A stretch of 59,025 nucleotides of DNA from Candidatus Limnocylindria bacterium (GCA_035525825.1 DATLDP010000033.1:1-59025), one strand, 5' to 3'; counted from the first letter of the stretch, positions 4,022 through 39,046 are shown. Notes: a model not told the origin generated them from the sequence alone. Numbers and translations are program-made.

Positions 4022-5128
4022 ATGTCGACCAGTCCGAGGAAGCCCCCCGCCCCCGGAGCGATCGTCGCCGGTGGTGCCGTGCTCCTCCTGATCGCCATCG
4101 TCGGGATCGTGCTCCTGAGCCCTGCCGGCTCGGCGCTGTATCCGCCGCCGCCCGCCACTGCCCAGGCGCGGGAGATCAGCCAGCTCTACGACATCATCTT
4201 CGCCATCGCCGTGGTGGTCTTCCTCGTCGTCGAGGGCCTGATCGTCTGGAGCATCTTCCGGTACCGCCGGCGCCCGGGCGACACGGACCTGCCGCCCCAG
4301 ACCCACGGCAACAACCTGGTCGAGGCGCTCTGGACGCTCATCCCGACCGTGCTCGTGATCTTCATGTTCGCGATCTCGTGGCAGACCCTCGATCACGTTG
4401 ACGCGGTCAGCGCGGACCCGGACGTCCACATCAACGCCCTGGCGGGCCAGTTCCAGTGGCAGTTCCAGTACCTCGACAAGGACGGCAACGTCCTCGCGAC
4501 CCAGCGCCGAGCGGTCGGCGACGGCGGCGGCATGGCCGTGCCGGTCGCCAAGTCGGTCTACGTGACGCTCGAGAGCCGGGACGTCATCCACGCCTGGTAC
4601 GTCCCGCGGTTCCTCTTCAAGCGCGACGTCGTCCCGGGCCAGCAGAACCACTTCGAGTTCAAGGTGGACGAGGCCGAGGCCGGCCAGACGTTCCACGGCC
4701 AGTGCGCGGAGCTCTGCGGTACCGGCCATCGGGCGATGCTCTTCGACGTCGTGGCCATGGCCCCGGCGGACTACGACGCCTGGCTGGCGAAGCTGGTCGA
4801 GGCGGCCAATGCGACGCCGCCTCCGGCGCCGTCCGGCGCAGCCGTGATCGACCTGGCGGCGCAGGCCATCGCCTACGACAAGAAGACGCTCGATGCCCCG
4901 GCGGACGCACCGTTCGTCATCGCCTTCAAGAACGGCGACCCCGAGACCATCACCCACGACGTCGACATCAAGGGTGCCGACGGCGCCGTGATCGCCAACC
5001 AGGAGCCCATCGCGGGCGGCACCACCGGCCAATACCAGTACCAGCCGCTCGCGGCCGGCACGTACCAGTTCTTCTGCTCGATCCATCCCGGCGTGGCCGC
5101 GATGGAAGGCACCCTGACGGTGAAGTGA
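4022..5128 (+). CDS. ctaC: Cytochrome c oxidase subunit II with C-terminal type-1 cupredoxin domain
   Basis: Two TM helices; CuA ligands DVIHAW...CAELCGTGHRAM; P/A linker; then H(DV)...CSIHPGVAAM. SD gaggag precedes ATG 4022. Confidence 0.93.
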   Translation: MSTSPRKPPAPGAIVAGGAVLLLIAIVGIVLLSPAGSALYPPPPATAQAREISQLYDIIFAIAVVVFLVVEGLIVWSIFRYRRRPGDTDLPPQTHGNNLVEALWTLIPTVLVIFMFAISWQTLDHVDAVSADPDVHINALAGQFQWQFQYLDKDGNVLATQRRAVGDGGGMAVPVAKSVYVTLESRDVIHAWYVPRFLFKRDVVPGQQNHFEFKVDEAEAGQTFHGQCAELCGTGHRAMLFDVVAMAPADYDAWLAKLVEAANATPPPAPSGAAVIDLAAQAIAYDKKTLDAPADAPFVIAFKNGDPETITHDVDIKGADGAVIANQEPIAGGTTGQYQYQPLAAGTYQFFCSIHPGVAAMEGTLTVK

Positions 5129-5138
5129 GGAGGCAGCG

Positions 5139-6854
5139 ATGGCCACGCACGCCCTGAGCCCGGCTGCCGTCCCCGCCTACCGCGGCGGCATCTACGAGTG
5201 GCTGACCACGACCGATCACAAGAAGATCGGGATCATGTACGTGATCAACTCGTTCCTGTTCTTCCTGGTCGGCGGCATGTTCGCGCTGCTCGTCCGGACG
5301 GAGCTGGCGCAGCCCGGGATCCAGTTCTTCACCAACGAGCACGTCTACAACGAGTCGTTCTCGATCCATGCGACCGTGATGATCTTCCTGTTCATCATCC
5401 CGATGCTCGCGGGCCTCGGGAACTACGCGGTCCCGCTGATGATCGGCGCGCCGGACATGGCGTTCCCGCGGATCAATGCCCTGTCGTTCTGGATGTTGCC
5501 GCTCGGCGGGATCCTGCTGCTGATGGGCTTCCTGGTCCCAGGCGGCGCGGCCGCGGCCGGCTGGACGAGCTATCCCCCACTGTCCGAGCGAGGCGCGCTG
5601 TCGTCGCCAGGTGCGGGCCAGGACCTCTGGATCGTGGCACTGATCCTGATCGGCACGAGCTCGATTCTCGGCGGCATCAACTTCCTCGTGACGATCTTCA
5701 AGATGCGCGCGCCCGGGATGACCCTGTTCCGGATGCCGATCATGGTCTGGACCATTCTCGTGACCAGCGTGCTCGTCGTCATGGCGACGCCGGTCATCAC
5801 GAGCGCCCTGGTTATGCTCTTCATCGACCGGAACTACGGCGGCTCGTTCTTCAACCCGGAGACCGGCGGCACGGCCGTGCTCTACCAGAACGTGTTCTGG
5901 TTCTACTCGCATCCCGCCGTGTACGTCATGGTCCTGCCCGCGATGGGCGTGATCAGCGAGGTCCTGCCGGTCTTCAGCCGGAAGCCGCTGTTCGGCTACA
6001 AGGCGTTCATCTTCGCGACCGCCGGCATCGGCGCCCTCGGGTTCTCTGTGTGGGCCCACCACATGTTCACGACGGGCGCGGTGTTCCTGCCGTTCTTCGC
6101 GCTGATGACGTTCTTCATCGCCGTCCCGACCGGCGTGAAGATGTTCAACTGGGTCTTCACGATGTTCCGGGGCCAGCTGACATTCTCGACCCCGCTCATC
6201 TTCGCGATCGGCTTCCTGACGATGTTCCTGATCGGCGGCATCAACGGCGCCTTCAGCGCAGCCGTCCCGGTCGACTTCGCCCTCCATGACACCTACTGGG
6301 TCGTCGCCCACCTCCACTACGTCCTCTTCGGCGGCTCCGTGTTCGGCGTCTTCGCCGGGCTCTACTACTGGTTCCCGAAGATGACCGGCCGGATGCTCGA
6401 TGAAGGGCTCGGCAAGGTCCACTTCGCCCTGATGTTCATCGGCTTCAACCTGACGTTCTTCCCGATGCACATGCTCGGCATCAAGGGCATGCCCCGGCGG
6501 ATCGCGGACTACGCCTCCACCGCGGGCTGGAACGACTGGAACCTCCTGGCAACCGTCGGCGGCTTCCTGATCGGCATCTCGATGCTGCCGTTCATCTGGA
6601 ACGTCTTCGTCTCGCTGCGGAACGGCAAGGTCGCCGGCGACGATCCATGGGAGGGCAACACCCTCGAGTGGGCGACCTCCTCGCCGCCGCCGCCGTACAA
6701 CTTCGATCGCCTGCCGGAGATCCGGTCGGAGCGGCCGCTGTTCGATGCCCGCCACGGGCTCGTCGCCCATGACACCAACGCTCCGCGCGAGGTGGAGGAC
6801 GGCCAGAAGGCCATCGGGGCAGGCCCGGGCGAAGGTCGCGAGGGCCAGGCGTGA
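5139..6854 (+). CDS. ctaD: Heme-copper oxidase subunit I, A2 type
   Basis: TTTDHKKIG, HATVMIF, YSHPAVY, WAHHMF and VVAHLHY ligand motifs; PDMAFPRIN D-channel segment; TGVK K-channel lysine. Confidence 0.97.
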   Translation: MATHALSPAAVPAYRGGIYEWLTTTDHKKIGIMYVINSFLFFLVGGMFALLVRTELAQPGIQFFTNEHVYNESFSIHATVMIFLFIIPMLAGLGNYAVPLMIGAPDMAFPRINALSFWMLPLGGILLLMGFLVPGGAAAAGWTSYPPLSERGALSSPGAGQDLWIVALILIGTSSILGGINFLVTIFKMRAPGMTLFRMPIMVWTILVTSVLVVMATPVITSALVMLFIDRNYGGSFFNPETGGTAVLYQNVFWFYSHPAVYVMVLPAMGVISEVLPVFSRKPLFGYKAFIFATAGIGALGFSVWAHHMFTTGAVFLPFFALMTFFIAVPTGVKMFNWVFTMFRGQLTFSTPLIFAIGFLTMFLIGGINGAFSAAVPVDFALHDTYWVVAHLHYVLFGGSVFGVFAGLYYWFPKMTGRMLDEGLGKVHFALMFIGFNLTFFPMHMLGIKGMPRRIADYASTAGWNDWNLLATVGGFLIGISMLPFIWNVFVSLRNGKVAGDDPWEGNTLEWATSSPPPPYNFDRLPEIRSERPLFDARHGLVAHDTNAPREVEDGQKAIGAGPGEGREGQA

Positions 6855-7486
6855 CCGCTGAAGCCCCGCCCATGACCGGCGCCGTTTCCCACGGGGATCC
6901 GCACGCCGCCGAAAGCGGCCACGCGCAGCGAGGCATCTCCAACCCGATCCTCGGGATGGCGCTGTTCATCACCTCCGAGGTGATGTTCTTCTCGGGCCTG
7001 TTCGCCGCCTACTTCGCGACTCGCGCGGCGAACCAGCCGTGGCCGCCGGAGGCCTTCGGGGAGCTCCTGGAGCCCCTCTCTCTGATCCTGGTCGCGACGA
7101 TCATCCTGATCCTGAGCTCGTTCACCTGCCAGTTCGCCGTCTGGTCCATCCGGAAGGGCGACCGGGCCGGGTTCATCCGGAACATCTCGATCACCTTCGT
7201 GCTCGGGATCATCTTCCTGGTCATGCAGATGTACGACTACAGCATCCTCTTCGGCGAGGGGATGACGCTCGGCTCCGGGCCGTTCGGGACGACCTACTAC
7301 ACGCTCACCGGCTTCCACGGCGCCCACGTCTTCGGTGGCGTCCTGATGCTCGGGGTGGTGCTGTACCGCGGCCTCGCCGGCCAGTTCTCGGCGAAGCACC
7401 ATGACGCGGTCGAGGCGGTCAGCCTCTACTGGCACTTCGTCGACGTCGTCTGGATTCTCCTCTTCTCGATCCTGTACCTGGTCTGA
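6851..7486 (+). CDS. ctaE: Cytochrome c oxidase subunit III (short form)
   Basis: LFITSEVMFFSGLF, YYTLTGFHGAHV, SLYWHFVDVVW; GTGA overlap with ctaD. Confidence 0.95.
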   Translation: MTAEAPPMTGAVSHGDPHAAESGHAQRGISNPILGMALFITSEVMFFSGLFAAYFATRAANQPWPPEAFGELLEPLSLILVATIILILSSFTCQFAVWSIRKGDRAGFIRNISITFVLGIIFLVMQMYDYSILFGEGMTLGSGPFGTTYYTLTGFHGAHVFGGVLMLGVVLYRGLAGQFSAKHHDAVEAVSLYWHFVDVVWILLFSILYLV

Positions 7487-7499
7487 GGGGGAACGAGAC

Positions 7500-7685
7500 A
7501 TGCCCGGTCGACATCTCGCCGCCATCATCATCGCGATCAGCTGCGTGGTCCTCGGCGTCCTCTACGGCGCCCTCGCGCCCGTCTTCGGCTACCGCATCGA
7601 GTGGGCCGGCGTCACGATGCTGATCGCGCTCGGTGCCGCCCTCGGCCTCATGGTGTTCGTCCTCGACACCGGGCACCGCGAGTAG
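7500..7685 (+). CDS. Small two-TM membrane protein resembling the N-terminal half of actinobacterial oxidase subunit IV (CtaF)
   Basis: 61 aa with two hydrophobic helices; IEWAGVTMLIALG recalls the CtaF EWAGT motif; in-operon position. Confidence 0.6.
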   Translation: MPGRHLAAIIIAISCVVLGVLYGALAPVFGYRIEWAGVTMLIALGAALGLMVFVLDTGHRE

Positions 7686-7698
7686 CGGGCTCCTGCCG

Positions 7699-8787
7699 AT
7701 GGAGCCGACCGCCAGTTCCAGGACCCTCCTCGACACGCTGCTCGAGGCGGCCGCGGTCGTCATCACCCCGAACTGGAACGAGCTGCTGCTCCTGATCCCG
7801 ATCGGGCTGCTCCTCCTCTTCCTCGCCTGGTTCATGCTGACGCTTCGCAGGTTCGCGACCGTCGGCCCCCGACGCCGGGAGCCGGCGCGGATCCAGCCGC
7901 TGACGCCCGCCAACGTCCACATGCCGGGCGGCTCGCTCGCCCCGATCCTGGTCGCGGTGGGCGCGGCATCGCTGTTCGCCGGCCTGATCATCGGTGGCGT
8001 CGCGCTGCTGCTGGGTGTCATCGCGCTCGTGATCACGATGCTCGCCTGGTTCCGCGAGGCGATGCAGGACTACGACCACCTGGAGCCCGCGAACCGGCTG
8101 CCGGCCGTGGTCCACGAGGGCCCGCCGCCCGGCGTCCACATGCCCGGGCCATCGATCCGCCCGCTCCTGGGGGCGCTCGGCTCCGCGGCGCTGCTGGGCG
8201 GCCTCGTGATCGGTGGCTGGGTGCTGATCCTCGCGGTCATCTTCCTCGTCTACACCCTCATCGGCTGGCTGGTCGACGCGACCGCCGAGTACCGCAAGGT
8301 CGAGGAGGCGGACAAGACCGGCCATCTCGAGAACATCCCGGACCGGCGGCTGCCGATGCGCACGCTCCAGGTCTTCGCCGTCCTGTTCGCCCTGCTGACG
8401 ATGGCCCAGCTCGGGATCTTCCCGCCGACCGCGCCGGCCACGGCCGGTGGCCCCGGCGGCTCCCCTGCCCCATCCGGCGCCGGCGGCCCCGTGGCGCCTC
8501 CGGGCTCGCTCCAGCTGGTCGCGTCGGGCATCTCCTACGACCAGAAGTCCCTCACGGCGCCCGCGGACCAGCCGATCACGTTCTTCCTGGTGAACAAGGA
8601 TCCGGCCTCCACTCCGCACGACGTGGAGCTCCACAACGCGGACGGCACGCCGATCAAGCCGGTCCCCGAGACGCCCGGCGGAGAGTCGATGGCCTACCAG
8701 TACGACCCGCTGCCGGCCGGCGACTACACCTACATCTGCTCCATCCACCCAATCCCCGCGATGACGGGGACGCTCACGGTCCAGTAG
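7699..8787 (+). CDS. Multi-TM putative oxidase accessory subunit with duplicated HMPxxS hairpin modules and C-terminal type-1 cupredoxin
   Basis: VHMPGGSLAP (7918) and VHMPGPSIRP (8137) are each followed by two TM helices. C-terminal PHDV...ICSIHPIPAM. Confidence 0.8.
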   Translation: MEPTASSRTLLDTLLEAAAVVITPNWNELLLLIPIGLLLLFLAWFMLTLRRFATVGPRRREPARIQPLTPANVHMPGGSLAPILVAVGAASLFAGLIIGGVALLLGVIALVITMLAWFREAMQDYDHLEPANRLPAVVHEGPPPGVHMPGPSIRPLLGALGSAALLGGLVIGGWVLILAVIFLVYTLIGWLVDATAEYRKVEEADKTGHLENIPDRRLPMRTLQVFAVLFALLTMAQLGIFPPTAPATAGGPGGSPAPSGAGGPVAPPGSLQLVASGISYDQKSLTAPADQPITFFLVNKDPASTPHDVELHNADGTPIKPVPETPGGESMAYQYDPLPAGDYTYICSIHPIPAMTGTLTVQ

Positions 8788-8833
8788 GCAGGTCGACACG
8801 GCGCTCCACCTGGACCGGCGGCGCCGGCTCATC

Positions 8834-9430
8834 GTGATCGGGCTCGTGATTGCGGCGATCGCGACGTTCAGCCTCGTCCAGGTCCGGGCCGCGCTGGACC
8901 GGGCGGAGGCCACCCCAGGCCCGTTCATCGAGCGGGGCAAGGCGGCGCCGCCCATCGTCGGCCGAACGCTCGACGGGGAAACCTTCGACCTGGCGGCCCT
9001 GCGTGGGACCCCGGTGATCGTCAACTTCTGGGGCCCGAGCTGCATCCCCTGCCGCGACGAGTTCCCCCTCTTCAAGACGAAGCTCACCGAACTGGGAGCG
9101 GCGAATCTCGCCATCGTCGGCGTGCTCATGGACGACCCCGTCGCGCCGGCGCGGGACTTTGTCACCGAATACGGCGCGAGCTGGCCCACGGTCGAGGATG
9201 GATCCGGCGCGATCCGGGCGGTGTATCGCGTCGCCGCGCGACCGCAGTCCTACTTCATCGATCGCGAGGGCGTCCTCCGCGCGATCCAGGTCGGCCAGCT
9301 CACCGATGCCGAGTTCGCGCGGCAGTACGCGCTCATCTCGGGTGAGGCGGCCCCGGTCGTTACGGCGACCCCCGGTGGGTTCGGCAGCCAGAAGCCGTTC
9401 GGCAGTCGCGAGGTCCCGCCACCCCCATGA
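8834..9430 (+). CDS. Membrane-anchored TlpA/ResA-like thiol-disulfide oxidoreductase
   Basis: N-terminal TM; VIVNFWGPSCIPCRDEFP (CxxC); PQSYFIDREG cis-Pro motif. Start uncertain (RRRR n-region lies upstream). Confidence 0.85.
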   Translation: MIGLVIAAIATFSLVQVRAALDRAEATPGPFIERGKAAPPIVGRTLDGETFDLAALRGTPVIVNFWGPSCIPCRDEFPLFKTKLTELGAANLAIVGVLMDDPVAPARDFVTEYGASWPTVEDGSGAIRAVYRVAARPQSYFIDREGVLRAIQVGQLTDAEFARQYALISGEAAPVVTATPGGFGSQKPFGSREVPPPP

Positions 9431-10398
9431 TCGAGGTTGCGGGCCTGCGGAAGTCCTATGACGGCCGGACGGTGCTCGAGGGCGTGGACCTCGTCGTTCG
9501 ACCGGGCGAGCTGGTCGCGCTGCTCGGCCCGAACGGCGCCGGGAAGACGACGACGGTCGAGATCGTCGAGGGCTTTCGCGATGCTGATGCGGGCATGGTG
9601 CGGGTGCTCGGGGAGGACCCGCGTCGCGGCGGGCCGGCGTTGCGAGCTCGGGTCGGCCTGATGCTCCAGGGCGGCGCGGGGCTGGAGCCACGCGCGACGG
9701 CGAGGGACCTCGTTCGGCTCTACTGTGCCTTCCACGACGGCGGCCGCCGCGCCGACGAGCTGATCGAGCAGGTGGGGCTCGCGCCCGTCGCCGGGACGCG
9801 GGTCCGGCGGCTCTCCGGCGGCGAGCGACAACGACTCTCGCTCGCGCTGGCCCTCGCGGGCGAGCCCGAGGTGCTGCTCCTTGACGAGCCGACCGCCGGG
9901 ATGGATCCGGAGGCGCGGCGGGACACGCGGGCGCTCGTAGCGTCGCTGCGACGCGAGGGGCGGACGATCCTGCTGACCACCCATGACCTCGGCGACGTCG
10001 AGGAGCTCGCGGATCGCGTCGCGATTCTCGCCAACGGCCGGATCGTGGCGGACGCGTCACCGGAAGAGCTCCGCGCCGGGGTCGAGACGGCCATCCGGTT
10101 CCGCCTGCACGCCACGCCCGCGCCCGAGGCGCTCGCGAAGCTGGCGTTGCGCCTGTCACAACGCGACCGCGGGGTCGAGCTCCGGCCGGTCGGCCGAGAG
10201 GGCCGCGACGACGATGCCGGCGCCGCGACGACCTTCGAGATCAGCCCGGGCGCCGCGTCCGCGGACGTTGTCGCCGACGTCTCCGCGTGGGCCGCGCGCG
10301 AGGGCCTCCTCGTCACGGAGCTGCGCGCGGGGGCCGCGTCGCTGGAGGATCGCTACCTGGAGCTGACCGGCGATCGCGACATCGAGGCCGGCTCGTGA
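9427..10398 (+). CDS. ABC transporter ATP-binding protein (ABC-2/DrrA type)
   Basis: GPNGAGKTT, LSGGERQR, LLLDEPT, TTH. Confidence 0.92.
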   Translation: MIEVAGLRKSYDGRTVLEGVDLVVRPGELVALLGPNGAGKTTTVEIVEGFRDADAGMVRVLGEDPRRGGPALRARVGLMLQGGAGLEPRATARDLVRLYCAFHDGGRRADELIEQVGLAPVAGTRVRRLSGGERQRLSLALALAGEPEVLLLDEPTAGMDPEARRDTRALVASLRREGRTILLTTHDLGDVEELADRVAILANGRIVADASPEELRAGVETAIRFRLHATPAPEALAKLALRLSQRDRGVELRPVGREGRDDDAGAATTFEISPGAASADVVADVSAWAAREGLLVTELRAGAASLEDRYLELTGDRDIEAGS

Positions 10399-11162
10399 GC
10401 CGCCCGGCGCCTCCCCTTCGCGCGGCGGCAGCGCTGGCGGCGCTGGAGCTCAGGCTGACCGCCCGTCGCGGGGAGAACATCCTCGCGACGATCGTGATCC
10501 CCGTCGCCGTCCTGCTCTTCTTCGCGGGCACCTCGACCCTGCCCGATACCGGGGTTCGGCAGGTCGACGTGCTGCTTCCGGGGTCGATCGCCCTCGGGAT
10601 CATCGCGAGCAGCCTCGTCAACCTCGGGATCGCCACGGGCTACGACCGCCAGTACGGCGTGCTGAAGCGCCTCGGCGGCGCGCCCCTGCCGCGCTGGGGC
10701 CTCGTCGCGGCCAAGATCGCGGCGGTCCTCGTCCTCGAGCTCGTCCAGGTGATCGCCCTCGTCACCGTGGCGAATCTCGCCTTCGGCTGGACGCCCGGGC
10801 CCGGCTGGTCCCCGCTGCTCGCCATCGGCGCGGTCCTGCTCGGGACGCTGGCGTTCGCGGGCCTCGGGCTCCTCCTCGCGGGGACCATGCGCGCCGAGGC
10901 AAACCTGGCGCTCGCCAACGCGCTGTTCCTCACGTTCATGTTGATCGGCGGGATCATCCTGCCCGTCGACCACCTGCCCGCGTTCCTGCAGCCGATCGCC
11001 GCGATCCTGCCCTCGACCGCGCTCGCCGATCTGCTGCGAATCTCGCTCGCGAGCGGCGCTGCCACGGTCGCCAGCGCCAATCCCCTGTCGCCGATCGCCA
11101 CGCTGGCCGGGTGGACCGTGATCGGGGTCGGGCTCGCGACGCGGCGCTTCCGCTGGGAGTAG
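10395..11162 (+). CDS. ABC-2 type transporter permease
   Basis: Six TM helices, 'DRQYGVLKRLGGAPL' motif; GTGA overlap with the ATPase gene. Confidence 0.88.
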   Translation: MSRPAPPLRAAAALAALELRLTARRGENILATIVIPVAVLLFFAGTSTLPDTGVRQVDVLLPGSIALGIIASSLVNLGIATGYDRQYGVLKRLGGAPLPRWGLVAAKIAAVLVLELVQVIALVTVANLAFGWTPGPGWSPLLAIGAVLLGTLAFAGLGLLLAGTMRAEANLALANALFLTFMLIGGIILPVDHLPAFLQPIAAILPSTALADLLRISLASGAATVASANPLSPIATLAGWTVIGVGLATRRFRWE

Positions 11163-11175
11163 CCGGGAAAAGAAA

Positions 11176-11204
11176 GAACCCCGGGTGGTCGGGACCCGGG
11201 GTTC
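11176..11204 (-). terminator. Intrinsic terminator of the tRNA-Met gene (possibly bidirectional)
   Basis: 11-bp stem gaaccccgggt/acccggggttc, followed by tttctttt on the minus strand. Confidence 0.75.
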
Positions 11205-11220
11205 AAAGGTGACTTCGAAT

Positions 11221-11295
11221 TGGTTGCGGGGGAAGGATTCGAACCTCCGACCTTCGGGTTATGAGCCCGACGAGCTGCCGCTGCTCCACCCCGCG
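11221..11295 (-). tRNA. tRNA-fMet (initiator, anticodon CAT), CCA encoded
   Basis: Reverse complement cgcgggg...gggctCATaaccc...ggttcgaatcc...ccccgcaacca; C1:A72 mismatch and three consecutive G-C pairs in the anticodon stem. Confidence 0.95.
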
Positions 11296-11372
11296 AAGGT
11301 CTAATACTTTACCAGAAATTGACCCCTCGGTCAAAGGCCGAGCCTCGCCTGGTTACGACTAGACTCGCGGTT

Positions 11373-11948: not shown

Positions 11949-11978
11949 CGATGGCCGGGCGCCCGATATCCTCGCTCG

Positions 11979-29299: not shown

Positions 29300-30871
29300 C
29301 TAGCGAGCCGGGCCGCCCTGAATCTCGCGTTTTCGCCGGTCCACGAAGTCGTCCAGCGCTTCCGCCCGACCCGGATCCAGCGGCGGCCGCTGGAACTCCG
29401 CGAGGAGCTGCTTCCAGATGCGATTCGCCCGTTCCGTGGCGGTCCTCGCGCCGTCCTCCTGCCACGTCTCGAAGTTCCGCCAGTCGGACAGCATCGGCTG
29501 GTAGAAGGCGTGCTCGAACCGCTCGAGCGTGTGGGCCGTCCCGAAGAAGTGCCCACCGGGCCCCACCTCGGCGATCGCATCGAGGCCCAGCTCGACATCG
29601 TCGATCTTGGGCGGCTGGAGGACGAGCGCCATCTGCTGGAGCAGCTCGGCGTCGAGGATCAGCTTCTCGAAGCTCGCGGTCAGTCCGCCCTCCAGCCAAC
29701 CCGCGCCCTGATAGAGGATGCTGGCGCCGCCGAGCACCGCGCCCCAGATCGACATCTCGCTCTCGTACGCGGCCTGCGCGTCCACGACCGCCGAGCCTGT
29801 CACGTTGGAAGTCCGATGCGGGAGCGAGACCCGCCGCGCCAGCTGCCCGGTCGCGATCTGGCCCTGGACGTACTCCGGCGTCCCGAACGCCGGCGAGCCG
29901 GTGCGCATGTCCACGTTCGAGGTAAAGCCGCCGTAGACCATCGGCGTCCCCGGCCGAACGATCTGGGCGAGCGCGACCATGAACAGGGCCTCCGCGTGCT
30001 GCTGCGCCAGCGCGCCGGCGAGGGTCGCGGGGGCCATCGCGCCCGCCAGCGTGAACGGCGTGGCGATCACCGGCTGGCCCGCCTCCGCCATCGCGATGAG
30101 CCCGTCCGACATGGGTTCGTCCAGCCGCAGCGGCGAGTTCGTGTTGACCACGGTCATGAGGCTCGGTTCGCGCGCGAGCTGCGCCCGATCGATGCCGCGG
30201 GTGATGCAGGCGACCTCGATCGCGTCCTCGGCGACCTGCGAGCCGAAGGCAAGGCATTGCCACGTCTTGTCCAGCGTCGTCGCGAACGTCCGGTACATGT
30301 CGAGATGGCGGGTCTCGACCGGGAGGTCGGTCGGCTCGAGCGGTCCGCCGCCCTCCTGGTGGACGATGTCCAGCGCGCCGATCACCCGGACGTAGTCCTG
30401 GAAGTCGGCGAAGTTGCCGGGCCTCCGGCCACGATCGATGTCGCTGACGAACGCCGGTCCGCCGACGGCCCCGAACACGAGATGCCGATCGCCGAAGATC
30501 AGGTTCCGCTCGGGGTTGCGGGCGTGGAGCTCGAAGCTCGCAGGCGCCGTCGCGACCAGACCTTCGAGGAGCTCGGGCTCCATGCGGACTCGGGCGGCGG
30601 CGCCCCGACCCGCCGCGTCCGCGGTTTTGCGCTCGACGCTGGCGCCGGCCCCCTCGAACAGGTCGAGCGCCCGCGCGTTGAGCACCTCGAGACCGATCTC
30701 ACGCAGGATCTTGAGGCCCGCCCGATGGACCGCCTCGAGCTGGTCCGCGCTCAGGAGCTCAATCGGCGCGAACGGATTGACGATCCGCCGCCATGGCAAC
30801 CGCGGCACGCCACCACCCGTCCGCCGCTCGCGGCGCGGCCGCGTTCGCCAGAGCTCTGGTTGGTCCGGCAC
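29300..30871 (-). CDS. Trimethylamine methyltransferase (MttB) superfamily protein, non-pyrrolysine
   Basis: NTNSPL, TPFTLAGAMAPATLAGA, SNVDMRTGSPAFGTPE, DAQAAYES, GWLEGGL; no in-frame TAG. Confidence 0.92.
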   Translation of the reverse strand: MPDQPELWRTRPRRERRTGGGVPRLPWRRIVNPFAPIELLSADQLEAVHRAGLKILREIGLEVLNARALDLFEGAGASVERKTADAAGRGAAARVRMEPELLEGLVATAPASFELHARNPERNLIFGDRHLVFGAVGGPAFVSDIDRGRRPGNFADFQDYVRVIGALDIVHQEGGGPLEPTDLPVETRHLDMYRTFATTLDKTWQCLAFGSQVAEDAIEVACITRGIDRAQLAREPSLMTVVNTNSPLRLDEPMSDGLIAMAEAGQPVIATPFTLAGAMAPATLAGALAQQHAEALFMVALAQIVRPGTPMVYGGFTSNVDMRTGSPAFGTPEYVQGQIATGQLARRVSLPHRTSNVTGSAVVDAQAAYESEMSIWGAVLGGASILYQGAGWLEGGLTASFEKLILDAELLQQMALVLQPPKIDDVELGLDAIAEVGPGGHFFGTAHTLERFEHAFYQPMLSDWRNFETWQEDGARTATERANRIWKQLLAEFQRPPLDPGRAEALDDFVDRRKREIQGGPAR

Positions 30872-30905
30872 CGAGCCACGATAGGGCTTTGGGCTGGCGC
30901 GAAAG

Positions 30906-31763: not shown

Positions 31764-31838
31764 CCTCGTAGCACGCACGCAAGGTTGCGGGCCGGCGCGG
31801 CGAGGCTCGCAGAACAGAACCCGGGTAGGGTCACGGAT

Positions 31839-32057
31839 GTGGATCGGCCGGTGCTCATCGTCAATCCGCGCTCCGACGAGGCCTTCGTGGCGCTCGCGCA
31901 GGCGTTGATCGAGCGGGGCGCTGAAAGTCCCTCTGCGCTCGAAACGGAGCTCCGGCAGCGGTATCCTCTTGCGGTGGTGCGCGAGCGCGGCCTCACCGCC
32001 GAGGCCCCGGTCTGGTACGTGTACCGGGAGGGACAATGGATTCCGAGCGCGAGCTGA
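31839..32057 (+). CDS. Small hypothetical protein; stand-alone paralogue of the preceding N-terminal domain
   Basis: Shares P..D.AF, PSALE..LR..YP.A.V and YVYR[DE] with 31173-31763. Confidence 0.75.
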   Translation: MDRPVLIVNPRSDEAFVALAQALIERGAESPSALETELRQRYPLAVVRERGLTAEAPVWYVYREGQWIPSAS

Positions 32058-32263
32058 ACGAACGACAGGATGACCTGCGAGCGACGAGCGAGGACATCGT
32101 CGTTGACGCGACCTCGCTGAAAGCCCTCGAGGAAGTAAAGGGTTCCATGTCCGTTGGCGACCCGCGCCTGGTCGTGCTCGCAAGGGCGGCCGAGAAGCTG
32201 GGCGAGAAGATCGCAGCAAAGACATCGCTCGAGCTGGCGCTCGCCGAGGACTCCGCCGGATAG
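32036..32263 (+). CDS. Small helical hypothetical protein (75 aa)
   Basis: SD gggaggga before ATG, inside the upstream gene; helix-GDP-helix pattern. Confidence 0.65.
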   Translation: MDSERELNERQDDLRATSEDIVVDATSLKALEEVKGSMSVGDPRLVVLARAAEKLGEKIAAKTSLELALAEDSAG

Positions 32264-32329
32264 AGCTCAGTTGAACTTCTGGTGGGCTGGCGGTCCCACC
32301 ACTGAGATGGACCGCCAGCCCACCGGCAC

Positions 32330-33127
32330 CTAGGCCGTGCTGTGGCGGCGCTCGGGCGCGCTCGAAGAAGGGGTGCTCGTCCTGGCCGCAGGCGTCGGTT
32401 TCGCCCCCTGGTCCTCGGCCGCAGCTCGAACCTTCTCGGCGGCTGCCTGCGTGTCTTCGTACCACTTCTGGGTGATCTGGCCGGCGACATCACGGCCACC
32501 TAGCCCGAAGGCCAGTCCGAATGCCAGGGCGAGGGCGGCGACGAGACCGGTGAACAGAATGTTGAGCAGGTCGGCAGCGATGCCGATCTGGTCAATGGCA
32601 ATCAGGACCGCGAACGCAATGACCGCGATCTCGGCCACACGGCCGAGCAGCGGCGCGTTGGTGAAGCCCATGTTGCCCGCGCCAACCTCGATCAGCCCAC
32701 GCAGGAACCGCCCGATCAGCGGAGCTACGAGCAGAATCACCGCGGCGACGAGGAGATTCGGGATCCACAGCAGAACCTGATTGAGCAGGGTGCTGACCTG
32801 CGGCATGCCCAGGACGTTGGCGGCGGCGACCAGGAAGACGAAGCGGATGATCCACTTCACGATCTCCGACGTCACGACGCTTGGCTTGATCTGCTTTGAC
32901 CGCTTCCCGTAGACGTCCCCGCCGTGCTGGGCGAACATCCGGTCCGCGCCTGCCCGCTCAAGCAACGCTCGCACGGCTCTGCCCACGACACTGGCGATGA
33001 TCCAACCAACAATCAGGATCAGCAGCGCCCCGAGGACCAGCGGGATGGCGGTGATGAAGGTGTTGAGCGCATTCGACGCCGCCAGGAAGATGGCGTCTCC
33101 CCAGTTCGAGACTTCTTGCGTAATCAT
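32330..33127 (-). CDS. TM_helix-repeat membrane protein (CmpX / small-conductance mechanosensitive channel-like)
   Basis: Two repeats 'IPLVLGALLILIVGWIIA' and 'IPNLLVAAVILLV'; ALAFGLAFGLGGRD; SD gaggagagg. Confidence 0.82.
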   Translation of the reverse strand: MITQEVSNWGDAIFLAASNALNTFITAIPLVLGALLILIVGWIIASVVGRAVRALLERAGADRMFAQHGGDVYGKRSKQIKPSVVTSEIVKWIIRFVFLVAAANVLGMPQVSTLLNQVLLWIPNLLVAAVILLVAPLIGRFLRGLIEVGAGNMGFTNAPLLGRVAEIAVIAFAVLIAIDQIGIAADLLNILFTGLVAALALAFGLAFGLGGRDVAGQITQKWYEDTQAAAEKVRAAAEDQGAKPTPAARTSTPSSSAPERRHSTA

Positions 33128-33330
33128 CCTCTCCTCGGAAACACTGATTGCGCAGGCGTAGGGGCCGCGCTCCACTACAGGTTCAGGGCGGAGCAGTGCC
33201 GTCGGGCAATCACAGGCTGTGCCCGCGGTTGCATCGGGCCGACGGAACCGAGAATGGTTCGTGGAACGCTGGCAACCGGGCGCCTGCCGCGGGGCCCGGA
33301 TTCCTGTCGGCACGTAGACCGGGGCTCCGC

Positions 33331-34314
33331 CTAGTCGTAGACCTCGGGGTTGACCGGCGTCGGGAGGCGCTCACCGCGAACGCCCGCGAGCAGGTTCGCG
33401 GCGGCCATCGAGGCCATCTTGCCGCGGGTCGCCAAGGAGGCAGACGCGATATGCGGCACGACGAGGCAATTGTCGAGCGTTACCAGCGGATGGTCGGCCG
33501 GGAGCGGCTCGGGGTCAGTCACGTCGAGGCCCGCCGCCGCGATGACGCCGTCCTGCAGGGCCGTCACGAGCGCGTCGGTGTCGATCACCGCACCGCGCGA
33601 GGTATTGACCAGGACCGCCGACGGCTTCATCCACCGAAGGCGCTCGGCGTTCAGGAGGTGGTGCGTCTGCGGGCTCAGGTTCACGTGGAGCGACACGAAG
33701 TCGCACTTGGGCAACAGCTCCTCGAGCGGCATGAACGTCGCGCCGAGCTCCGCCTCCACCTGGGGGCTGGCCTGCGAGAGGTCGTGATAGAGGACCCGCA
33801 TCCCGAAGCCGGCGGCGCGGCGAGCCATCGCTTGCCCGATCCGCCCGAAGCCGACGATCCCGATCGTGGCGCCATGGACGTCGGGGCCCATCAGGAGCAT
33901 CGGGCCCCAGGTCTTCCACTTGCCGTCGCGGACGTAGTGATCCGCCTCGGCAATGCGGCGCGCGGCGGCCATGAGCAGGGTCCAAGCGAGGTCCGCGGTG
34001 GTTTCGGTGAGGACGCCCGGGGTGTTCCCGACAGCGACGCCTCGGGCCGTGCAGGCCGCGACATCGATGTTGTCGAAGCCGACGGCGAAGTTCGAGACGA
34101 CCTTCAGGTTCGGGCCGGCCCGATCGAGGAACGCGTCGTCGACCTTGTCAGTTAGCAGGGCGAGGACCCCGTCGCAGCCCTCGATCGCCCGGAGGAGCTC
34201 GTCCCGCGGCGGCGGCAGGTCGCCCTGCCAGACCTCGGCGTCGCAGGCATCGAGGATCGGGCGGAGGCCCTCCTCGGGGATGATTCGCGAGACGAAGACC
34301 TTCGGTCCGGGCAC
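33331..34314 (-). CDS. D-isomer 2-hydroxyacid dehydrogenase (glyoxylate/hydroxypyruvate reductase)
   Basis: [46 protein letters not shown]. Confidence 0.92.
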
Positions 34315-34324
34315 TCCGCGGCGC

Positions 34325-35524
34325 CTAGCGGGAGCCGGACGCGGCCGCGGCCGACCCGACCAGCGGCGTGACGAGGGCCTGGATCCGCGCGAGCGCTTCG
34401 GTGAGATTCTCGCGGGAGTTCGCATACGAGATGCGGATGTGGTTCGTGCCCACGCCGCCGAAGGCCGTGCCCGCGAGGACGCAGACGCCGGCCTCCTGGA
34501 GCAGCCGCTCCGCGAGCTCCGCTCCGGTCATGCCCGTGCCCGAGACGTCGGGGAAGACGTAGAACGCGCCCTGGGGCTTGATGCAGCGGAACCCGGGGAT
34601 CGCGTTGAGCCCGTCGACGATGAGGTCGCGGCGGGCTTTGAACTCCACGACCATCGCGTCGACGTCGTCCTGCGGCCCGCGGAGCGCCTCGATCGCGCCT
34701 GCCTGGGCGAACGCGGTGACGCCCGAGATGGTGTTGATGATCAGCTGGCTGTAGGGCTTCACGAGCCAGTCCGGGACCACCGCGTAGCCCATCCGCCAGC
34801 CGGTCATCGCATAGGTCTTCGAGAAGCCGTCGAGGGTGATCGTCCGCTCGGCCATGCCGGGCAGCGAGGCGATGGAGACGTGCTCGGCCCCGTCGTACAG
34901 GATCCGCGAGTAGATCTCGTCGCTCAGGACCACGAGGTCGTGCTGAAGCGCGAGCTCGGCGATGCGCTCGATATCACCACGGGTCAGGACGCCGCCGGTC
35001 GGATTCGCCGGCGAGTTGATCACGAGGAGCCTGGTCTTCGGCGTGATCAGCGAGGCCAGCTCGTCGACGTCGAGGCGGAAGTCGTTCTCCATCCGGATCG
35101 GGATGGGCACTGCCGTGCCGCCGACGAAGCGGGTGATCGATTCGTAGATCGGGTAGCCCGGATCGGGGACGATGACCTCGTCCCCCGGATCCACCAGGGC
35201 CATGATCGCGTAGACCATCACGCCCTTGCCGCCGACGGTCACGAACACGTTCGATGGCTCCACCGCAAAACCGCGCCGGGCCGTCGTGTCGGCGGCGATC
35301 GCGGCGCGCAGGTCCGGCAGGCCCGCGAACGGCGGGTAGTGGGTCATGCCGTTGTCGAGTGCGGTCTTCGCGGCCTCGCGGACGTTCGCCGGGGTGTCGA
35401 AGTCCGGTTCGCCGATCTGGAGATAGACGATCGATCGACCGGTCGCCTCGAGCGCGCGGGCCCTCGCCGAGACCTCGAACGCCGTCTCCGTCCCGATCGA
35501 ATCCATGCGTGCGGCAGCTTTCAT
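34325..35524 (-). CDS. Class I/II PLP-dependent aminotransferase (AspC-like)
   Basis: [35 protein letters not shown]. Confidence 0.92.
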
Positions 35525-35558
35525 GGCCCGCATCATAGGCTCGGCCTAGAATCCGGTG

Positions 35559-36002
35559 GTGACCCGCTACTACGCCATCGACGAGGCCAACGCCGCCATC
35601 CCCGAGGTGGAGCGAATCCTCATCGGCCTGCGCGACCAGCGCGAGGAGCTCATCGCCCGGCGGGACCGCGTCGTGCAGCTGTCGCCTTCGGATGACGAGG
35701 CGCCGCCCGCCGGCGCCGCCGAGCAGATCCGGCTGCTGCGCCTGTCGATGCAGGGGCTCATCGACCAGATGCAGGCGGGCGTCGCGCGGCTGGTCGAGAT
35801 GGACGTCACGCTGCGGGACATCGCCACCGGGCTGATCGATTTTCCGGCGCTGGTGAGCGGCCGCCCGATCTGGCTGTGCTGGCGCCTCGGCGAATCGGAC
35901 ATCGCCAGCTGGCACGCCCACGACGAGGGCTTCGACTCCCGCCGCCCGCTGGACGAGCTCCCGAGCATCTCGTCTCGCGGCTCGGGCACGCCATCCGCGT
36001 AG
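35559..36002 (+). CDS. DUF2203 family protein
   Basis: YAIDEANA; GLIDFPA...LCWRLGE..I..WH..DEGFDSRRPL. Start 35556 or 35559. Confidence 0.85.
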   Translation: MTRYYAIDEANAAIPEVERILIGLRDQREELIARRDRVVQLSPSDDEAPPAGAAEQIRLLRLSMQGLIDQMQAGVARLVEMDVTLRDIATGLIDFPALVSGRPIWLCWRLGESDIASWHAHDEGFDSRRPLDELPSISSRGSGTPSA

Positions 36003-36024
36003 CGCGGGAGCGACCAGCCGGCCG

Positions 36025-36453
36025 GTGAACGACCAGCGCATCGTCCAGGGCGGACGGTCGAAGGCCTACCGGCCGATCCCGGAGGCCGAGCGGCGCGCGG
36101 CAATCGAGGATGGCCTCGCGGCGTACCACCGAGGCGACTTCTTCCTGGCCCACGAGCTGCTCGAGCCGGCGTGGATGGGGACCGCGGACCTGCCCGAGCG
36201 GGAGCTGCTGCAGGGCCTGATCAAGCTCGCGGCTGCGTTCGTCCATGACGCCCGCTCGAACCCGCTCGGCATCCGAAAGAATCTCGCGGGAGCCCGGGAC
36301 CGGCTGGCGGAAGGGCTCTATGCGGGCTCGCGCGTCGGGATCGATGTCGTGGCGCTGATCGCCGCCGTCGATGCACGCCTGGGTGGTGCGATCGAGGTTG
36401 GCGACCCGCCGATCGAGATCCCGCCACAGGATCCGACCGCGGGCGGAGGCTAG
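36025..36453 (+). CDS. DUF309 family protein
   Basis: FFLAHELLEPAW and LQGLIKLAAAFVH. Confidence 0.85.
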   Translation: MNDQRIVQGGRSKAYRPIPEAERRAAIEDGLAAYHRGDFFLAHELLEPAWMGTADLPERELLQGLIKLAAAFVHDARSNPLGIRKNLAGARDRLAEGLYAGSRVGIDVVALIAAVDARLGGAIEVGDPPIEIPPQDPTAGGG

Positions 36454-37979
36454 GCCTCCTTCGGGGCCCGAGCTTCGCGTTCGGCCCTGCGGTTCCGCCA
36501 CCAGCCGGCCATCTTCTCGCGGTTGTTGAAGACCCAGCCGACCGCAACCAGGATCACGAAGTTGCCCGTGCCCACGCCCGCCGCGGCGAGGTAGCCGAGC
36601 TGCTGCCCGATCTCTCCGCCGATCTGGAGGCCCGGAACCACCAGGCCCACCAGCCCGAGCTGGAAGAACGGCGCCTGCGGGGCGAGGTTCGCGCGGTAGC
36701 CGCCGGTGGCGGGGGCGCCGTCCGCCTCGCCGCCGAGGACGTAAACGTTGACGCCGCTCACGACCGTGGCGCTGTCCACCACGCCCGCCGGCAGGTCGGT
36801 CTGATCCAGGTGACGCCAGCCATCGGCCAGGTCCCCGTTGGCATTCGGGAGGGCCCAGTACACCTCGCGCTTCGAGGCGATCCCGTCCGCGCCGCCCGCG
36901 ATGTAGAGCGCACCGTTGGCCACCCAGCCAGCGGCGCCACCGCGCGCACCGGGGAGGTTCGCGGCGTCATTAACGGCCCACTGGACGACCCCTTCGATGC
37001 CGCCGCTCGCCGCGGGGCTCGGGGCCGCTGCCGAAGCGCCCGGCGCCGCGCTGCCGGCAGCCGCCGCCGCGACGCCGTAGCTGGCGCGCTGGACGGTGGC
37101 GGTCGGTCCGTTGGCGTCGTTGCCGCCGAAGACCCACAGGTAGGTGCCCTCGAGGGCCATCGTCGCGTCGGCCACGGCGTGGAGCAATGGCGGCTGCTCC
37201 TTGAACTCGCCGAGGTTGCCGGAGGTGTCGATCGTGGACTTCCAGACCTTGGTGCTCGGCGCGCCGTTGGCGTCTCGCCCGCCCGCGATCACGATGCCGT
37301 CGGTCACGGCAACCGCGGAGGCGCCGGCCCGGGGCTCGGGAAGCTTGAGATCCGTCGCGTCCTCGCCGGTGCCGATCTTGGCCGGCTCCCAGGCCTTGAG
37401 CGCGCTGGTGTCGGGGTCCAGCCCGATCTTCCAGACTGTGTCCGTGGCGCCGCCGGGACCGGCCCCGCCGACCAGGTAGGCCGTTCCGGAGAGGATCGCG
37501 AGCGCGGCGTCGGCGCGGGCCTCCGGCAGGGCCGGACCCTCCGCCCAGGCGCCGAAGACGCCGTTCGCGACCTGGCTGACGTAGGTCGTCGCGACCGGCG
37601 CGTTGCCGTCGCTGCCGCCGATGTACAGGAGGTTCGTGCCGAGCTGGGCAGCCGCACCGTCGCTTCGCGCCGCGGGGAGCGCCACGTCGGCGGCCGTGCC
37701 CTGCCACGGGACCAGCGCGCCGGCGGGAACGGGGCACGGCATGTTCGTGCCGTTCTCCGGCGGGCAGAGGTTGACCGGCGACCAGCCGAGGATGCCGAGG
37801 TCGATCGTCCGTGAGACGACGAAGTAGTAGGCGCGATCCGGCACGTAGCCGAGGGCCATGATGATGACGAGGAGCCAGAACCCGGCCTTCGTCGTCGCCC
37901 AGCCCCAGCCCTCGGGATCGAACAGCCCGAACACGGGACGGCTCCGAACCGGTCGACCTGCGGGCAGCGCCTTGGCCAT
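36450..37979 (-). CDS. Membrane protein with six Kelch-like repeats between N- and C-terminal TM segments
   Basis: Repeats LYIGG, YLVGG, VIAGG, WVFGG, YIAGG and YVLGG, most preceded by LP.AR/LP.G; 2 nt downstream of the cytochrome c gene. Confidence 0.82.
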   Translation of the reverse strand: MAKALPAGRPVRSRPVFGLFDPEGWGWATTKAGFWLLVIIMALGYVPDRAYYFVVSRTIDLGILGWSPVNLCPPENGTNMPCPVPAGALVPWQGTAADVALPAARSDGAAAQLGTNLLYIGGSDGNAPVATTYVSQVANGVFGAWAEGPALPEARADAALAILSGTAYLVGGAGPGGATDTVWKIGLDPDTSALKAWEPAKIGTGEDATDLKLPEPRAGASAVAVTDGIVIAGGRDANGAPSTKVWKSTIDTSGNLGEFKEQPPLLHAVADATMALEGTYLWVFGGNDANGPTATVQRASYGVAAAAAGSAAPGASAAAPSPAASGGIEGVVQWAVNDAANLPGARGGAAGWVANGALYIAGGADGIASKREVYWALPNANGDLADGWRHLDQTDLPAGVVDSATVVSGVNVYVLGGEADGAPATGGYRANLAPQAPFFQLGLVGLVVPGLQIGGEIGQQLGYLAAAGVGTGNFVILVAVGWVFNNREKMAGWWRNRRAEREARAPKEA

Positions 37980-37981
37980 CG

Positions 37982-39046
37982 CTATTCGACCGTCAGGGTG
38001 CCGGTCATCGCCGGGATCGGGTGGACCCGGCAGATGAAGGTGTAGGTACCGGCCGCGAGCGGAGCGTAGGGATAGACGATCTGCTGGCCGCCGTCGATCG
38101 GCGCGGGATCCGAGATCGAGGTGCCGTCCGCGGCCTTGATCTGGACGTTGTGGGGCAGACCGGGCCCGTCCTGATTGTCGAGCGCGATGCCGAACGGCTT
38201 GTCAGCCGGGACGGTGAGCTCCTTCTTGTCGAACGCGACGCCGACCGCGACAAGGTCGACGACGGTGTCCTCCGGGCCGAGCGTCGCCACCGGTGCCGGT
38301 GTGCCGCCACCGCTCCCGGACCAGCACTCGGGCACGTCGGTGGCGTCGGCGGCGGGCTTGAACTCGTCATCGCGCCAACCCTTGAACGTCTCGACCTTGC
38401 CGTCTTCGCCGATGACCGGTTCGTTGAGCTCCGGGTCGCGCCGGGTGAACTCCTGGGTGCTCGGAGCACGGATGAAGGCGATCAGGTCCTCGATCTGGAT
38501 GTAGTTGAGCGGGCCGCCGTTCGTGTCGGCCCAGACCGGCATGAGGCTCTTGGGATTGCCGCAGACGTACCGCCCGCCGACCGTCAGGACGTTGTGGATG
38601 TACTGCTCGGACAGGTGCGAGAAGAGCTTCGCCTGGTCGTTGAGGACCGGGCCGATCCCGCCCTCGCCCTTGGCGCCGTGGCACCGCGCGCAGTTCGCCT
38701 CGTAGAGGTTGTAGCCGCGCTCGATGGACGAGACCTGCTGGGCGTTCTCCTGCGCCTCGAGCCGCGGCGTCGTCTCGATGATCGGGACCCCGAGCTCGTA
38801 GAAGTAGTAGATGATCACGAACAGGGCCACGATCGCGACGCCGAGGAACGCCACCCACCGGGCGTCACCCGTCTGGCGGACGATCTTGGCGGCGCGCTCC
38901 GACGTCAGCCCCGCGATCGCCCGGGTCTGGCGGGGCGCGGTGAAGCGCTCGGCGGACCGGGTGGGGGCGGTTTCGCTGGGCTCGCGGCGGGCGGGCAGGC
39001 TCCGCTCCGGCTGGCCCTCCCGCCGGTCCCTGGGCGAGTCGGTCAT
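37982..39046 (-). CDS. Membrane-anchored monoheme cytochrome c fused to a type-1 cupredoxin
   Basis: One TM; CARCH heme motif; SLMP likely axial Met; C-terminal PHNV...ICRVHPIPAM. Confidence 0.88.
   Translation of the reverse strand: MTDSPRDRREGQPERSLPARREPSETAPTRSAERFTAPRQTRAIAGLTSERAAKIVRQTGDARWVAFLGVAIVALFVIIYYFYELGVPIIETTPRLEAQENAQQVSSIERGYNLYEANCARCHGAKGEGGIGPVLNDQAKLFSHLSEQYIHNVLTVGGRYVCGNPKSLMPVWADTNGGPLNYIQIEDLIAFIRAPSTQEFTRRDPELNEPVIGEDGKVETFKGWRDDEFKPAADATDVPECWSGSGGGTPAPVATLGPEDTVVDLVAVGVAFDKKELTVPADKPFGIALDNQDGPGLPHNVQIKAADGTSISDPAPIDGGQQIVYPYAPLAAGTYTFICRVHPIPAMTGTLTVE

Follow-up and report, generated by a model that had tools for sequence, protein, structure and literature searches.

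Three paralogous cupredoxin domains in two respiratory operons

The window analysed here, the whole stretch of 59,025 nucleotides (nt) from a Candidatus Limnocylindria bacterium (GCA_035525825.1, DATLDP010000033.1:1-59025; G+C ~70%), carries two respiratory operons with ~29 kb between them: an aa3-type oxidase operon on the plus strand and a Rieske/cytochrome b (bc) operon on the minus strand. The oxidase operon is read in the order coxII, coxI, a short coxIII, a possible open reading frame (ORF) of 61 amino acids (aa), a gene for a CtaF-like subunit and a thioredoxin-fold gene, with ctaG divergent from it. The bc operon is read in the order GltD-like Fe-S flavoprotein, cytochrome b6, subunit IV, Rieske protein, monohaem cytochrome c and Kelch propeller. 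Three of these products, namely CoxII (4022..5128, plus strand), the CtaF-like subunit (7699..8787, plus strand) and the cytochrome c (37982..39046, minus strand), terminate in paralogous domains of ~93 aa, found at 4844-5125 (+), 8509-8784 (+) and 37985-38263 (-) respectively, which we consider here as candidate type-1 (blue) copper electron carriers. A first-pass annotation of this DNA had described three similar C-terminal domains with a complete set of His/Cys/His/Met ligands, each preceded by a Pro/Ala/Gly linker, on CoxII, an extra oxidase subunit and the cytochrome c of the bc complex. All of these features were recovered in our analysis, with the identity of the hosts being borne out by Pfam and TIGR matches.

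In pairwise comparisons the three domains show 47-54% aa identity and 64-70% nt identity, and in searches within their own genome they match one another at E = 1.7e-25 to 8.6e-28, far beyond chance. Each contains an upstream histidine and a Cys-x2-His-x4-Met ligand loop (C-x2-H-x4-M in the CtaF-like and cytochrome c copies), the spacing before the methionine being x5 in the CoxII copy (C-x2-H-x5-M), which follows the linker ANATPPPAPSGAA. The P/A/G-rich linkers span ~13 aa in CoxII, ~29 aa in the CtaF-like subunit and ~20 aa in the cytochrome c. Against the Pfam Cupredoxin_1 model (PF13473, cut-off 27 bits) the CoxII and cytochrome c domains score 35.8 and 30.7 bits, and the CtaF-like domain, at 25.3 bits, falls slightly below the cut-off. 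A profile of the three window copies run against the PDB recovered auracyanin A first (2aan, 6.5e-8), then auracyanin B, with nitrite reductase, azurin and plastocyanin next; 1ov8 was matched at 1.2e-6, and identity to the auracyanins is only ~23-25%. In an AlphaFold2 (AF2) model of the cytochrome c computed with 45 orthologues, the copper domain (residues 260-354) is all beta with a predicted local distance difference test score (pLDDT) of 93-98, and the linker at 244-252 falls below 50; the CtaF-like domain is modelled at pLDDT 83-90. Foldseek searches with the cytochrome c domain returned the Roseiflexus and Chloroflexus auracyanins (6kol, 1qhq), a Bacillus Cupredoxin_1 protein, amicyanin and plastocyanin as top matches, with a probability of 1.0 to auracyanin, amicyanin and plastocyanin. 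The AF2 model of the cytochrome c, Foldseek and PF13473 agree on the Greek-key beta-sandwich fold of the cupredoxins.

The His/Cys/His/Met set is intact in all 78 domain copies that we collected from 27 genomes, and the ligand-loop length varies from x2 to x5 among them, even between orthologues. Both haem and copper ligands are invariant in 43-45 of the 45 orthologues of the cytochrome c; the His/Cys/His/Met set is present in 43 of these, and the other two appear to be out of frame locally. Together, hydropathy, positive-inside counts and the AF2 helices predict that each of the three domains lies at the outer surface of the membrane. On these sequence-based grounds the domains are bona fide cupredoxins of the type-1 copper class, evolving under strong constraint, and are predicted to bind copper.

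Host proteins and their anchoring in the membrane

CoxII matches the COX2_TM, COX2 and Cupredoxin_1 families, and its score against the CoxB equivalog model TIGR02866 (179 bits, cut-off 148) is far above its scores as a subunit II of quinol oxidases (QOXA, CyoA), the closest model being that of the actinobacterial CtaC. Its CuA motif H...CAELCGTGHRAM, as read from the sequence, is intact, and the protein possesses both the CuA site and the two-helix anchor of a caa3-type subunit II. The ORF is open from 3941, with M28 (4022) as the likely start, and a 368-aa form is on record. This CoxII contains no CxxCH motif, and the cupredoxin stands in the place of the haem c domain of the caa3 enzymes.

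The CtaF-like protein is recognized by PF12270 (Cyt_c_ox_IV), the family of the CtaF subunit IV of actinobacterial-type bcc-aa3 systems, in two stretches with 35.4 bits (cut-off 26.9). From its likely start at M23 (7699) it consists of one transmembrane (TM) helix, two helical hairpins of the Cox3 N-terminal type (with H-x-P-G-P-S occurring twice), a sixth TM helix, the linker and the copper domain. A phmmer search of the PDB sequences with the single protein gave no match; a profile of its orthologues recovered TM1-2 of the Cox3 of R. sphaeroides (1m56_C, 1.6e-7), the fused subunit I+III of the Thermus caa3 oxidase (2yev_A) and 9wcx_m, 'polypeptide 4'. The AF2 model contains six TM-length helices and a short N-terminal helix (H10-21); its mean pLDDT is 60 and the membrane part scores low, so that only the helix count was used. 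The CoxIII of the operon (6851..7486, plus strand) is a short 5-TM form without the two N-terminal helices, aligning with PF00510 only at model positions 77-255 of 258. As the CtaF-like protein is homologous to precisely that N-terminal hairpin of Cox3 which the short CoxIII lacks, its copper domain is likely to be anchored in the oxidase itself. Between the two genes lies the 61-aa ORF (7500..7685, plus strand), an uncertain candidate for a small oxidase subunit with two hydrophobic, possibly TM segments, which had no match in our family searches.

The cytochrome c is N-terminally anchored and monohaem, with the haem-binding motif CARCH and Met169, and matches PF00034 in addition to PF13473; it is the last redox subunit of the Rieske/cytochrome b operon. 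It has a single CxxCH and reaches only 47 bits against the QcrC model NF050122 (cut-off 200), and hence is not a dihaem cytochrome of that family.

Distribution in Limnocylindria and substitution for haem c

We surveyed the three hosts in a census sample of 121 genomes of the class Limnocylindria, in which we denote families as f1 (that of the window, probably CSP1-4), f2 (probably Limnocylindraceae, with genomes of 1.0-1.4 Mb), f3, f4 and f5. Most aerobic genera of f1 (g1-g4, g8, g10, g11 and g13) have the cupredoxin on CoxII, on the CtaF-like subunit and, behind haem c, on the bc cytochrome. Genus g9 has the first two fusions, and its bc cytochrome combines haem c with a different cupredoxin of the auracyanin/azurin-like type, having the loop C-x4-H-x3-M (locus L103, 538-1707). 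Since this distinct cupredoxin occupies the same C-terminal position, the domain has been replaced in g9 and not lost. An apparent lack of the cytochrome fusion in g9, g12 and genome G005 was accordingly rejected, g9 carrying the other cupredoxin type and the g12 and G005 genes being cut by contig ends. In genera g5 and g6 of the same family none of the three proteins is present. Family f2 has two CtaF-Cu genes and the haem c-Cu cytochrome; its CoxII is unfused, having lost the copper domain, and ends in a P/S-rich stub. Family f4 has the CoxII fusion, no CtaF-like protein and a dihaem cytochrome cc with two CxxCH motifs. In f3 and f5 CoxII bears a CxxCH haem c domain in the manner of the caa3 oxidases and no such cupredoxin, the CtaF-like protein is absent, and we found no homologue of the bc cytochrome.

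Sixty related loci contain the cytochrome c-Cu gene, which reaches into the C-terminal domain in 59 and is truncated by the end of the contig in the other. Of 273 Chloroflexota genomes sampled outside the class, only 11 yielded a match to the domain, mostly in small free proteins. The same three architectures recur in a set of 5.8 billion public proteins; they are frequent among metagenome-derived entries, amounting to more than 100 clusters, and the public records of the fusions carry automatic names only ('cytochrome c oxidase subunit 2' and 'plastocyanin', for instance).

In three loci (L105, L107 and L109) of the streamlined f2 genomes the full-length CtaF-Cu gene lies ~4-5 kb from the cytochrome c-Cu gene, on the opposite strand. 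Two f2 genomes (G056 and G065) have a second, shorter CtaF-Cu gene inside the oxidase operon, and a comparable copy occurs in G044.

Two positions in the respiratory chain hence display alternative occupants within a single class: the C-terminus of CoxII carries a haem c domain (f3/f5), a cupredoxin (f1/f4) or only a stub (f2), and the cytochrome of complex III ends in a further haem c (f4) or in a cupredoxin (f1/f2). Haem c at both these positions constitutes the built-in electron relay of the caa3 oxidases and of the actinobacterial bcc complexes. As the cupredoxins sit where relatives have haem c, copper probably performs the wiring that is done elsewhere by cytochrome c, and this substitution at both positions is the strongest argument for the predicted electron-carrier role. 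The retention of all four ligands in the 78 copies speaks for the same role, and so does the census of carriers in the genome of the window, where the cytochrome c-Cu protein is the one recognizable c-type cytochrome, the sole CxxCH protein with a cytochrome c fold. By analogy, the CoxII cupredoxin would be the copper counterpart of the caa3 haem c domain, and the cupredoxin borne by the cytochrome c would correspond to the second haem in a dihaem QcrC. The same evidence bears upon a role of the domains as copper chaperones or stores for the assembly of CuA and CuB. Some cupredoxin-fold proteins are indeed copper chaperones, CupA (4f2e) being among the fold matches of the present domains, and ctaG and a gene for a thioredoxin-like protein lie on either side of the oxidase operon. 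However, the full type-1 ligand set is invariant, one copy resides on the cytochrome c, a subunit of complex III, and that complex has no need of copper, and relatives have haem c electron carriers at the same positions; we regard a chaperone or storage function as very improbable.

The first-pass annotation had further linked the three fusions to one another, but we found no strict co-occurrence across genomes: f4 has the CoxII fusion alone and f2 lacks precisely that fusion. Independent occurrence of the fusions had been named there as a result that would speak against the proposal, and to this extent it is weakened, the fusions not being strictly coupled; electron transfer by the domains is not thereby disfavoured.

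Exchange of the module between host genes

In a phylogenetic tree of the 78 domains, the copies cluster by genome or genus and not by host protein. Three ancient orthologous lines, one for each host, were rejected by approximately unbiased (AU) tests (p = 1e-50, 1.3e-4 and 2e-59). The most extreme case is seen in G038, a genome of two contigs, where the modules of CoxII, the CtaF-like protein, the cytochrome c and a lipoprotein have 98-100% DNA identity over 331-450 nt. At the respective loci on its contig C1 (L099, L100 and L101) the four modules are near-identical and the host parts are unrelated; the identical tracts begin in the linker and extend up to ~65 nt beyond the stop codon. Weaker cases, with 78-80% nt identity between modules, were detected in G095, G062 and G080. 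The near-identity in G038 is probably the result of recent gene conversion, and the overall pattern suggests that gene conversion or replacement of the module has recurred.

Because the modules have been repeatedly exchanged between host proteins, they would have to be interchangeable, which suggests that they are also near-isopotential. A finely graded ladder of potentials is therefore disfavoured; potentials ordered between Rieske/cytochrome c and CuA, whose absence would in the first-pass annotation count against its proposal, look unlikely. An artefact of assembly or annotation, or a set of decaying remnants, might be suspected here, given that the sequences derive from metagenome-assembled genomes (MAGs) and that the near-identity in G038 could reflect problems of assembly or polishing. 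The fusions recur, however, in ~60 independent genome records and in the more than 100 metagenome protein clusters, and their reading frames are intact with invariant ligands, so that this explanation is effectively refuted.

A proposed model for copper-based electron transfer

The probable function of the three domains is that of type-1 copper electron carriers, tethered to the membrane as built-in parts of complex III and of the aa3 oxidase. Under this proposal the b6-type Rieske/cytochrome b complex would oxidise quinol and the Rieske cluster would pass electrons to the haem of the N-anchored cytochrome c, from which they would move to the cupredoxin on that protein's own ~20-aa tether. This cupredoxin would then reduce an oxidase-tethered one, either directly or via a lipoprotein cupredoxin of the same family. 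The receiving domains would be the CoxII copy, ~13 aa past the CuA domain, and the CtaF-like copy on its ~29-aa tether, and the electrons would proceed from there to CuA, haem a and finally the haem a3-CuB centre. Copper binding, the direction and order of these hops and any physical supercomplex of the two enzymes are inferences from the gene and protein sequences.

Four considerations weigh against this proposal. No single fixed three-hop wire is required, since the fusions are separable in evolution, as seen in f4 and f2. The presence of two cupredoxins on one oxidase is unexplained by the model. The fused domains may communicate with mobile partners, because free lipoprotein or tethered cupredoxins exist in the relatives and in the genome of the window itself. 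Finally, the count of one recognizable c-type cytochrome in that genome is a lower bound, because the genome is only ~80% complete.

The free cupredoxins bear on the possibility that the fused domains are fixed docking stations for the entry and exit of electrons, between which a diffusing lipoprotein cupredoxin comparable to auracyanin A performs the transfer; such a chain would be copper-based and not purely tethered. In the same-genus genomes G029, G047 and G095, and in most other members of the family, proteins with a lipobox, a P/A/S linker and the same domain are encoded, the lipoprotein copy of G038 being 98-100% identical in DNA to the three fused ones. At least four further membrane-tethered cupredoxins are encoded in the genome of the window: an auracyanin-type lipoprotein with isoleucine for the axial methionine (C32:192-737), a plastocyanin-like protein with a signal peptide and a C-terminal TM anchor (C39:20665-21411), and two proteins (C64:17882-18340 and C126:7624-9414), of which one is N-anchored with the loop C-x4-H-x4-M and one a lipoprotein with C-x2-H-x2-M. 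However, their similarity to the fused domain is only distant (E = 6e-7 to 8e-5), and in family f2 fused copies alone were found among the matches at E <= 1e-5. We hold a mobile lipoprotein shuttle to be possible, though clearly less so than carriage by the tethered domains, with which it is compatible and which it does not exclude. The swaps in f3/f5 and f4 fit the first-pass claim that the domains take the place of the haem c domains fused in caa3 and bcc-aa3 systems; its further claim, the replacement of a soluble carrier, is less secure, given the lipoprotein versions in the relatives and the other tethered cupredoxins of the genome. A fourth weak match in the same genome (C94; L064, 290-1587) was discarded as a respiratory carrier, being an EfeO-like cupredoxin lipoprotein encoded directly downstream of an FTR1-type iron permease; these two genes form an iron-uptake pair.

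The two separate copper domains on one oxidase, and the pairing in f4 of the CoxII fusion with a dihaem cytochrome cc complex III, would also accord with a branched copper network. In this the oxidase cupredoxins would accept electrons from other donors, such as dehydrogenases on the periplasmic face or metal oxidation, and that of the cytochrome c would deliver them to other acceptors. The several additional cupredoxins of the genome and the conservation of an unusual GltD-like flavoprotein and a Kelch protein in the bc operon are consistent with such branching. However, the window shows no candidate for another donor or acceptor in linkage with the oxidase operon, and the other complex is the simplest partner for each domain; a branched network is accordingly improbable in our estimation. 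The exchange of modules described above brings up a more specific form of the tethered-carrier proposal, namely a homotypic copper wire. Here the near-identical modules of the cytochrome c, CoxII, the CtaF-like subunit and the lipoprotein would transfer electrons by copper-to-copper self-exchange within an obligate assembly of complexes III and IV, with recurrent gene conversion among the four genes preserving the compatibility of their docking surfaces and potentials. We think this version rather doubtful, somewhat more so than the lipoprotein shuttle. If it is correct, one redox module would be evolving in concert on different respiratory subunits, of which we know no earlier description.

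Genomic context and host lineage

In the oxidase operon, CoxI, the haem-copper oxidase subunit I, is encoded at 5139..6854 (plus strand; PF00115, E = 3e-161), and the divergent gene at 2794..3900 (minus strand) specifies CtaG, a caa3-type oxidase assembly factor (PF09678 Caa3_CtaG, E = 2.8e-67). Downstream of the oxidase genes lies a thiol:disulfide oxidoreductase of the AhpC/TSA-Redoxin family (8834..9430, plus strand; PF00578, E = 1e-18), which is possibly a maturation factor similar to TlpA/ResA.

In the bc operon, all on the minus strand, cytochrome b6, the 4-TM N-terminal part of cytochrome b (40471..41199; PF00033, E = 6e-48), subunit IV, the PetD-like C-terminal part (39726..40352; PF00032), and the Rieske iron-sulfur subunit (39043..39717; PF00355 and the NCBIfam Rieske models) are encoded by consecutive genes, which identifies a split b6-type complex. 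An ORF at 40349-41275 on the same strand was dismissed as the cytochrome b, being in the wrong frame and without a family match. The TTG start of the b6 gene overlaps the stop codon of the gene upstream, the first of the operon (41196..43115), whose product is a GltD-like FAD/NAD(P) and multi-[4Fe-4S] oxidoreductase matching Pyr_redox_2, Fer4_20 and Fer4. This gene is found in 45 of the 60 related loci at 84-96% identity and is the best conserved of the bc operon. The last gene (36450..37979) encodes a membrane protein with a Kelch beta-propeller, as identified by matches to Kelch families, and hydrophobic ends. It follows the cytochrome c-Cu gene in 58 of the 60 loci, and likewise in genus g9, and its product may be an additional subunit or a scaffold of the Rieske/cytochrome b complex.

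In at least nine members of the family (G029, G071, G059, G074, G050, G113, G080, G038 and G062) the oxidase and bc operons occur on one contig, 10-60 kb apart. Between the two operons of the window lies a complete gene of the MttB family (trimethylamine methyltransferase-like; 29300-30871, minus strand; PF06253, E = 5e-186), the organism being apparently aerobic. All of the 60 related loci come from Chloroflexota MAGs labelled as Limnocylindria or Limnocylindrales, with two exceptions labelled as Patescibacteria group and Candidatus Dormiibacterota. The organism itself is an uncultured bacterium of soil and fresh water, and its class is abundantly represented in soils, sediments and lakes (PMC13212565).

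Comparison with known systems and implications

The closest parallel to the CoxII fusion is provided by the caa3 oxidases, such as those of Thermus thermophilus (2YEV), Bacillus and Rhodothermus, in which CoxII carries a C-terminally fused electron-donor domain. Both have the TM hairpin, CuA domain, short linker and fused one-electron carrier, a Caa3_CtaG gene adjoins, and the f3/f5 relatives possess the true caa3 form at this very position of CoxII. Here, however, the carrier is a type-1 copper cupredoxin without CxxCH, and a second copy is present on the CtaF-like subunit. A second parallel is the bcc-aa3 supercomplex of actinobacteria such as Mycobacterium and Corynebacterium, where dihaem QcrC, and no soluble cytochrome c, connects complex III with CuA and where CtaF is subunit IV. 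The present system resembles it in having a subunit of the CtaF family (PF12270), a CtaC-like CoxII, a weak match to QcrC and almost no other c-type cytochrome, and its relatives of family f4 have a dihaem cytochrome cc. It differs in that a cupredoxin takes the place of the second haem domain, cytochrome b is split into b6 and subunit IV, and the CtaF-like protein is internally duplicated and extended by a cupredoxin.

With respect to the domain itself, the nearest relatives are auracyanins A and B of Chloroflexus and Roseiflexus. These blue copper proteins are tethered to the membrane, and their proposed role is to connect alternative complex III (ACIII) with the reaction centre or the oxidase. 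They belong to the same phylum, are the best sequence and fold matches of the present domains and similarly combine a lipid or peptide anchor with a flexible linker, the present domain too having lipoprotein versions in the relatives. Unlike the present domains, the auracyanins are free proteins of ~125-140 residues with the loop C-x4-H-x4-M, and they accompany ACIII. The domains of the window accompany a Rieske/cytochrome b complex and are fused modules of ~93 aa with C-x2-H-x2-5-M, a loop of plastocyanin/amicyanin length. On account of these differences in loop length, size and fusion, the domain is best described as auracyanin-like and not as a member of that family.

The use of blue copper in place of cytochrome c also has archaeal counterparts in sulfocyanin SoxE of the SoxM supercomplex of Sulfolobus and in the ammonia-oxidising archaea. 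As is proposed here, an anchored or fused blue copper protein replaces cytochrome c between a Rieske/cytochrome b module and a haem-copper oxidase. The archaeal systems employ other host subunits and, as far as described, one carrier per system, whereas in the present bacterium the same module is found on three subunits of two complexes and haem c is retained. Published instances include a halocyanin fused to subunit IIa of the ba3 oxidase of haloarchaea (PMC3128077) and the plastocyanin-like carriers of the ammonia-oxidising archaea, a copper-wired precedent (PMC7785015). The first-pass annotation had called the three-fold arrangement unfamiliar. This holds for the arrangement, as our literature searches found no paper describing these fusions, many subscription papers lying outside their coverage and absence not being proof; it does not hold for the principle of copper in place of cytochrome c, for which the archaeal systems and the auracyanins are precedents. 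New in the present case are the occurrence of one cupredoxin module on three subunits of two complexes in a bacterial lineage, the swaps between haem and copper at both positions inside a single class, and the apparent concerted evolution of the module.

The respiration of the Limnocylindria had not previously been described at this level. If the proposal of tethered copper carriers is correct, a whole bacterial class would constitute a natural series in which two defined sites of the respiratory chain are occupied now by haem c, now by blue copper, contrasting caa3 with 'Cu-aa3' oxidases and dihaem cc with haem c-Cu cytochromes. Such a series, with domains that are small and soluble, would offer a system for studying the reasons and occasions for replacing iron by copper in electron transfer, the working of tethered carriers and the tuning of a cupredoxin by the length of its ligand loop, here from x2 to x5. 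The signal of gene conversion, in turn, suggests how interacting redox modules stay compatible.

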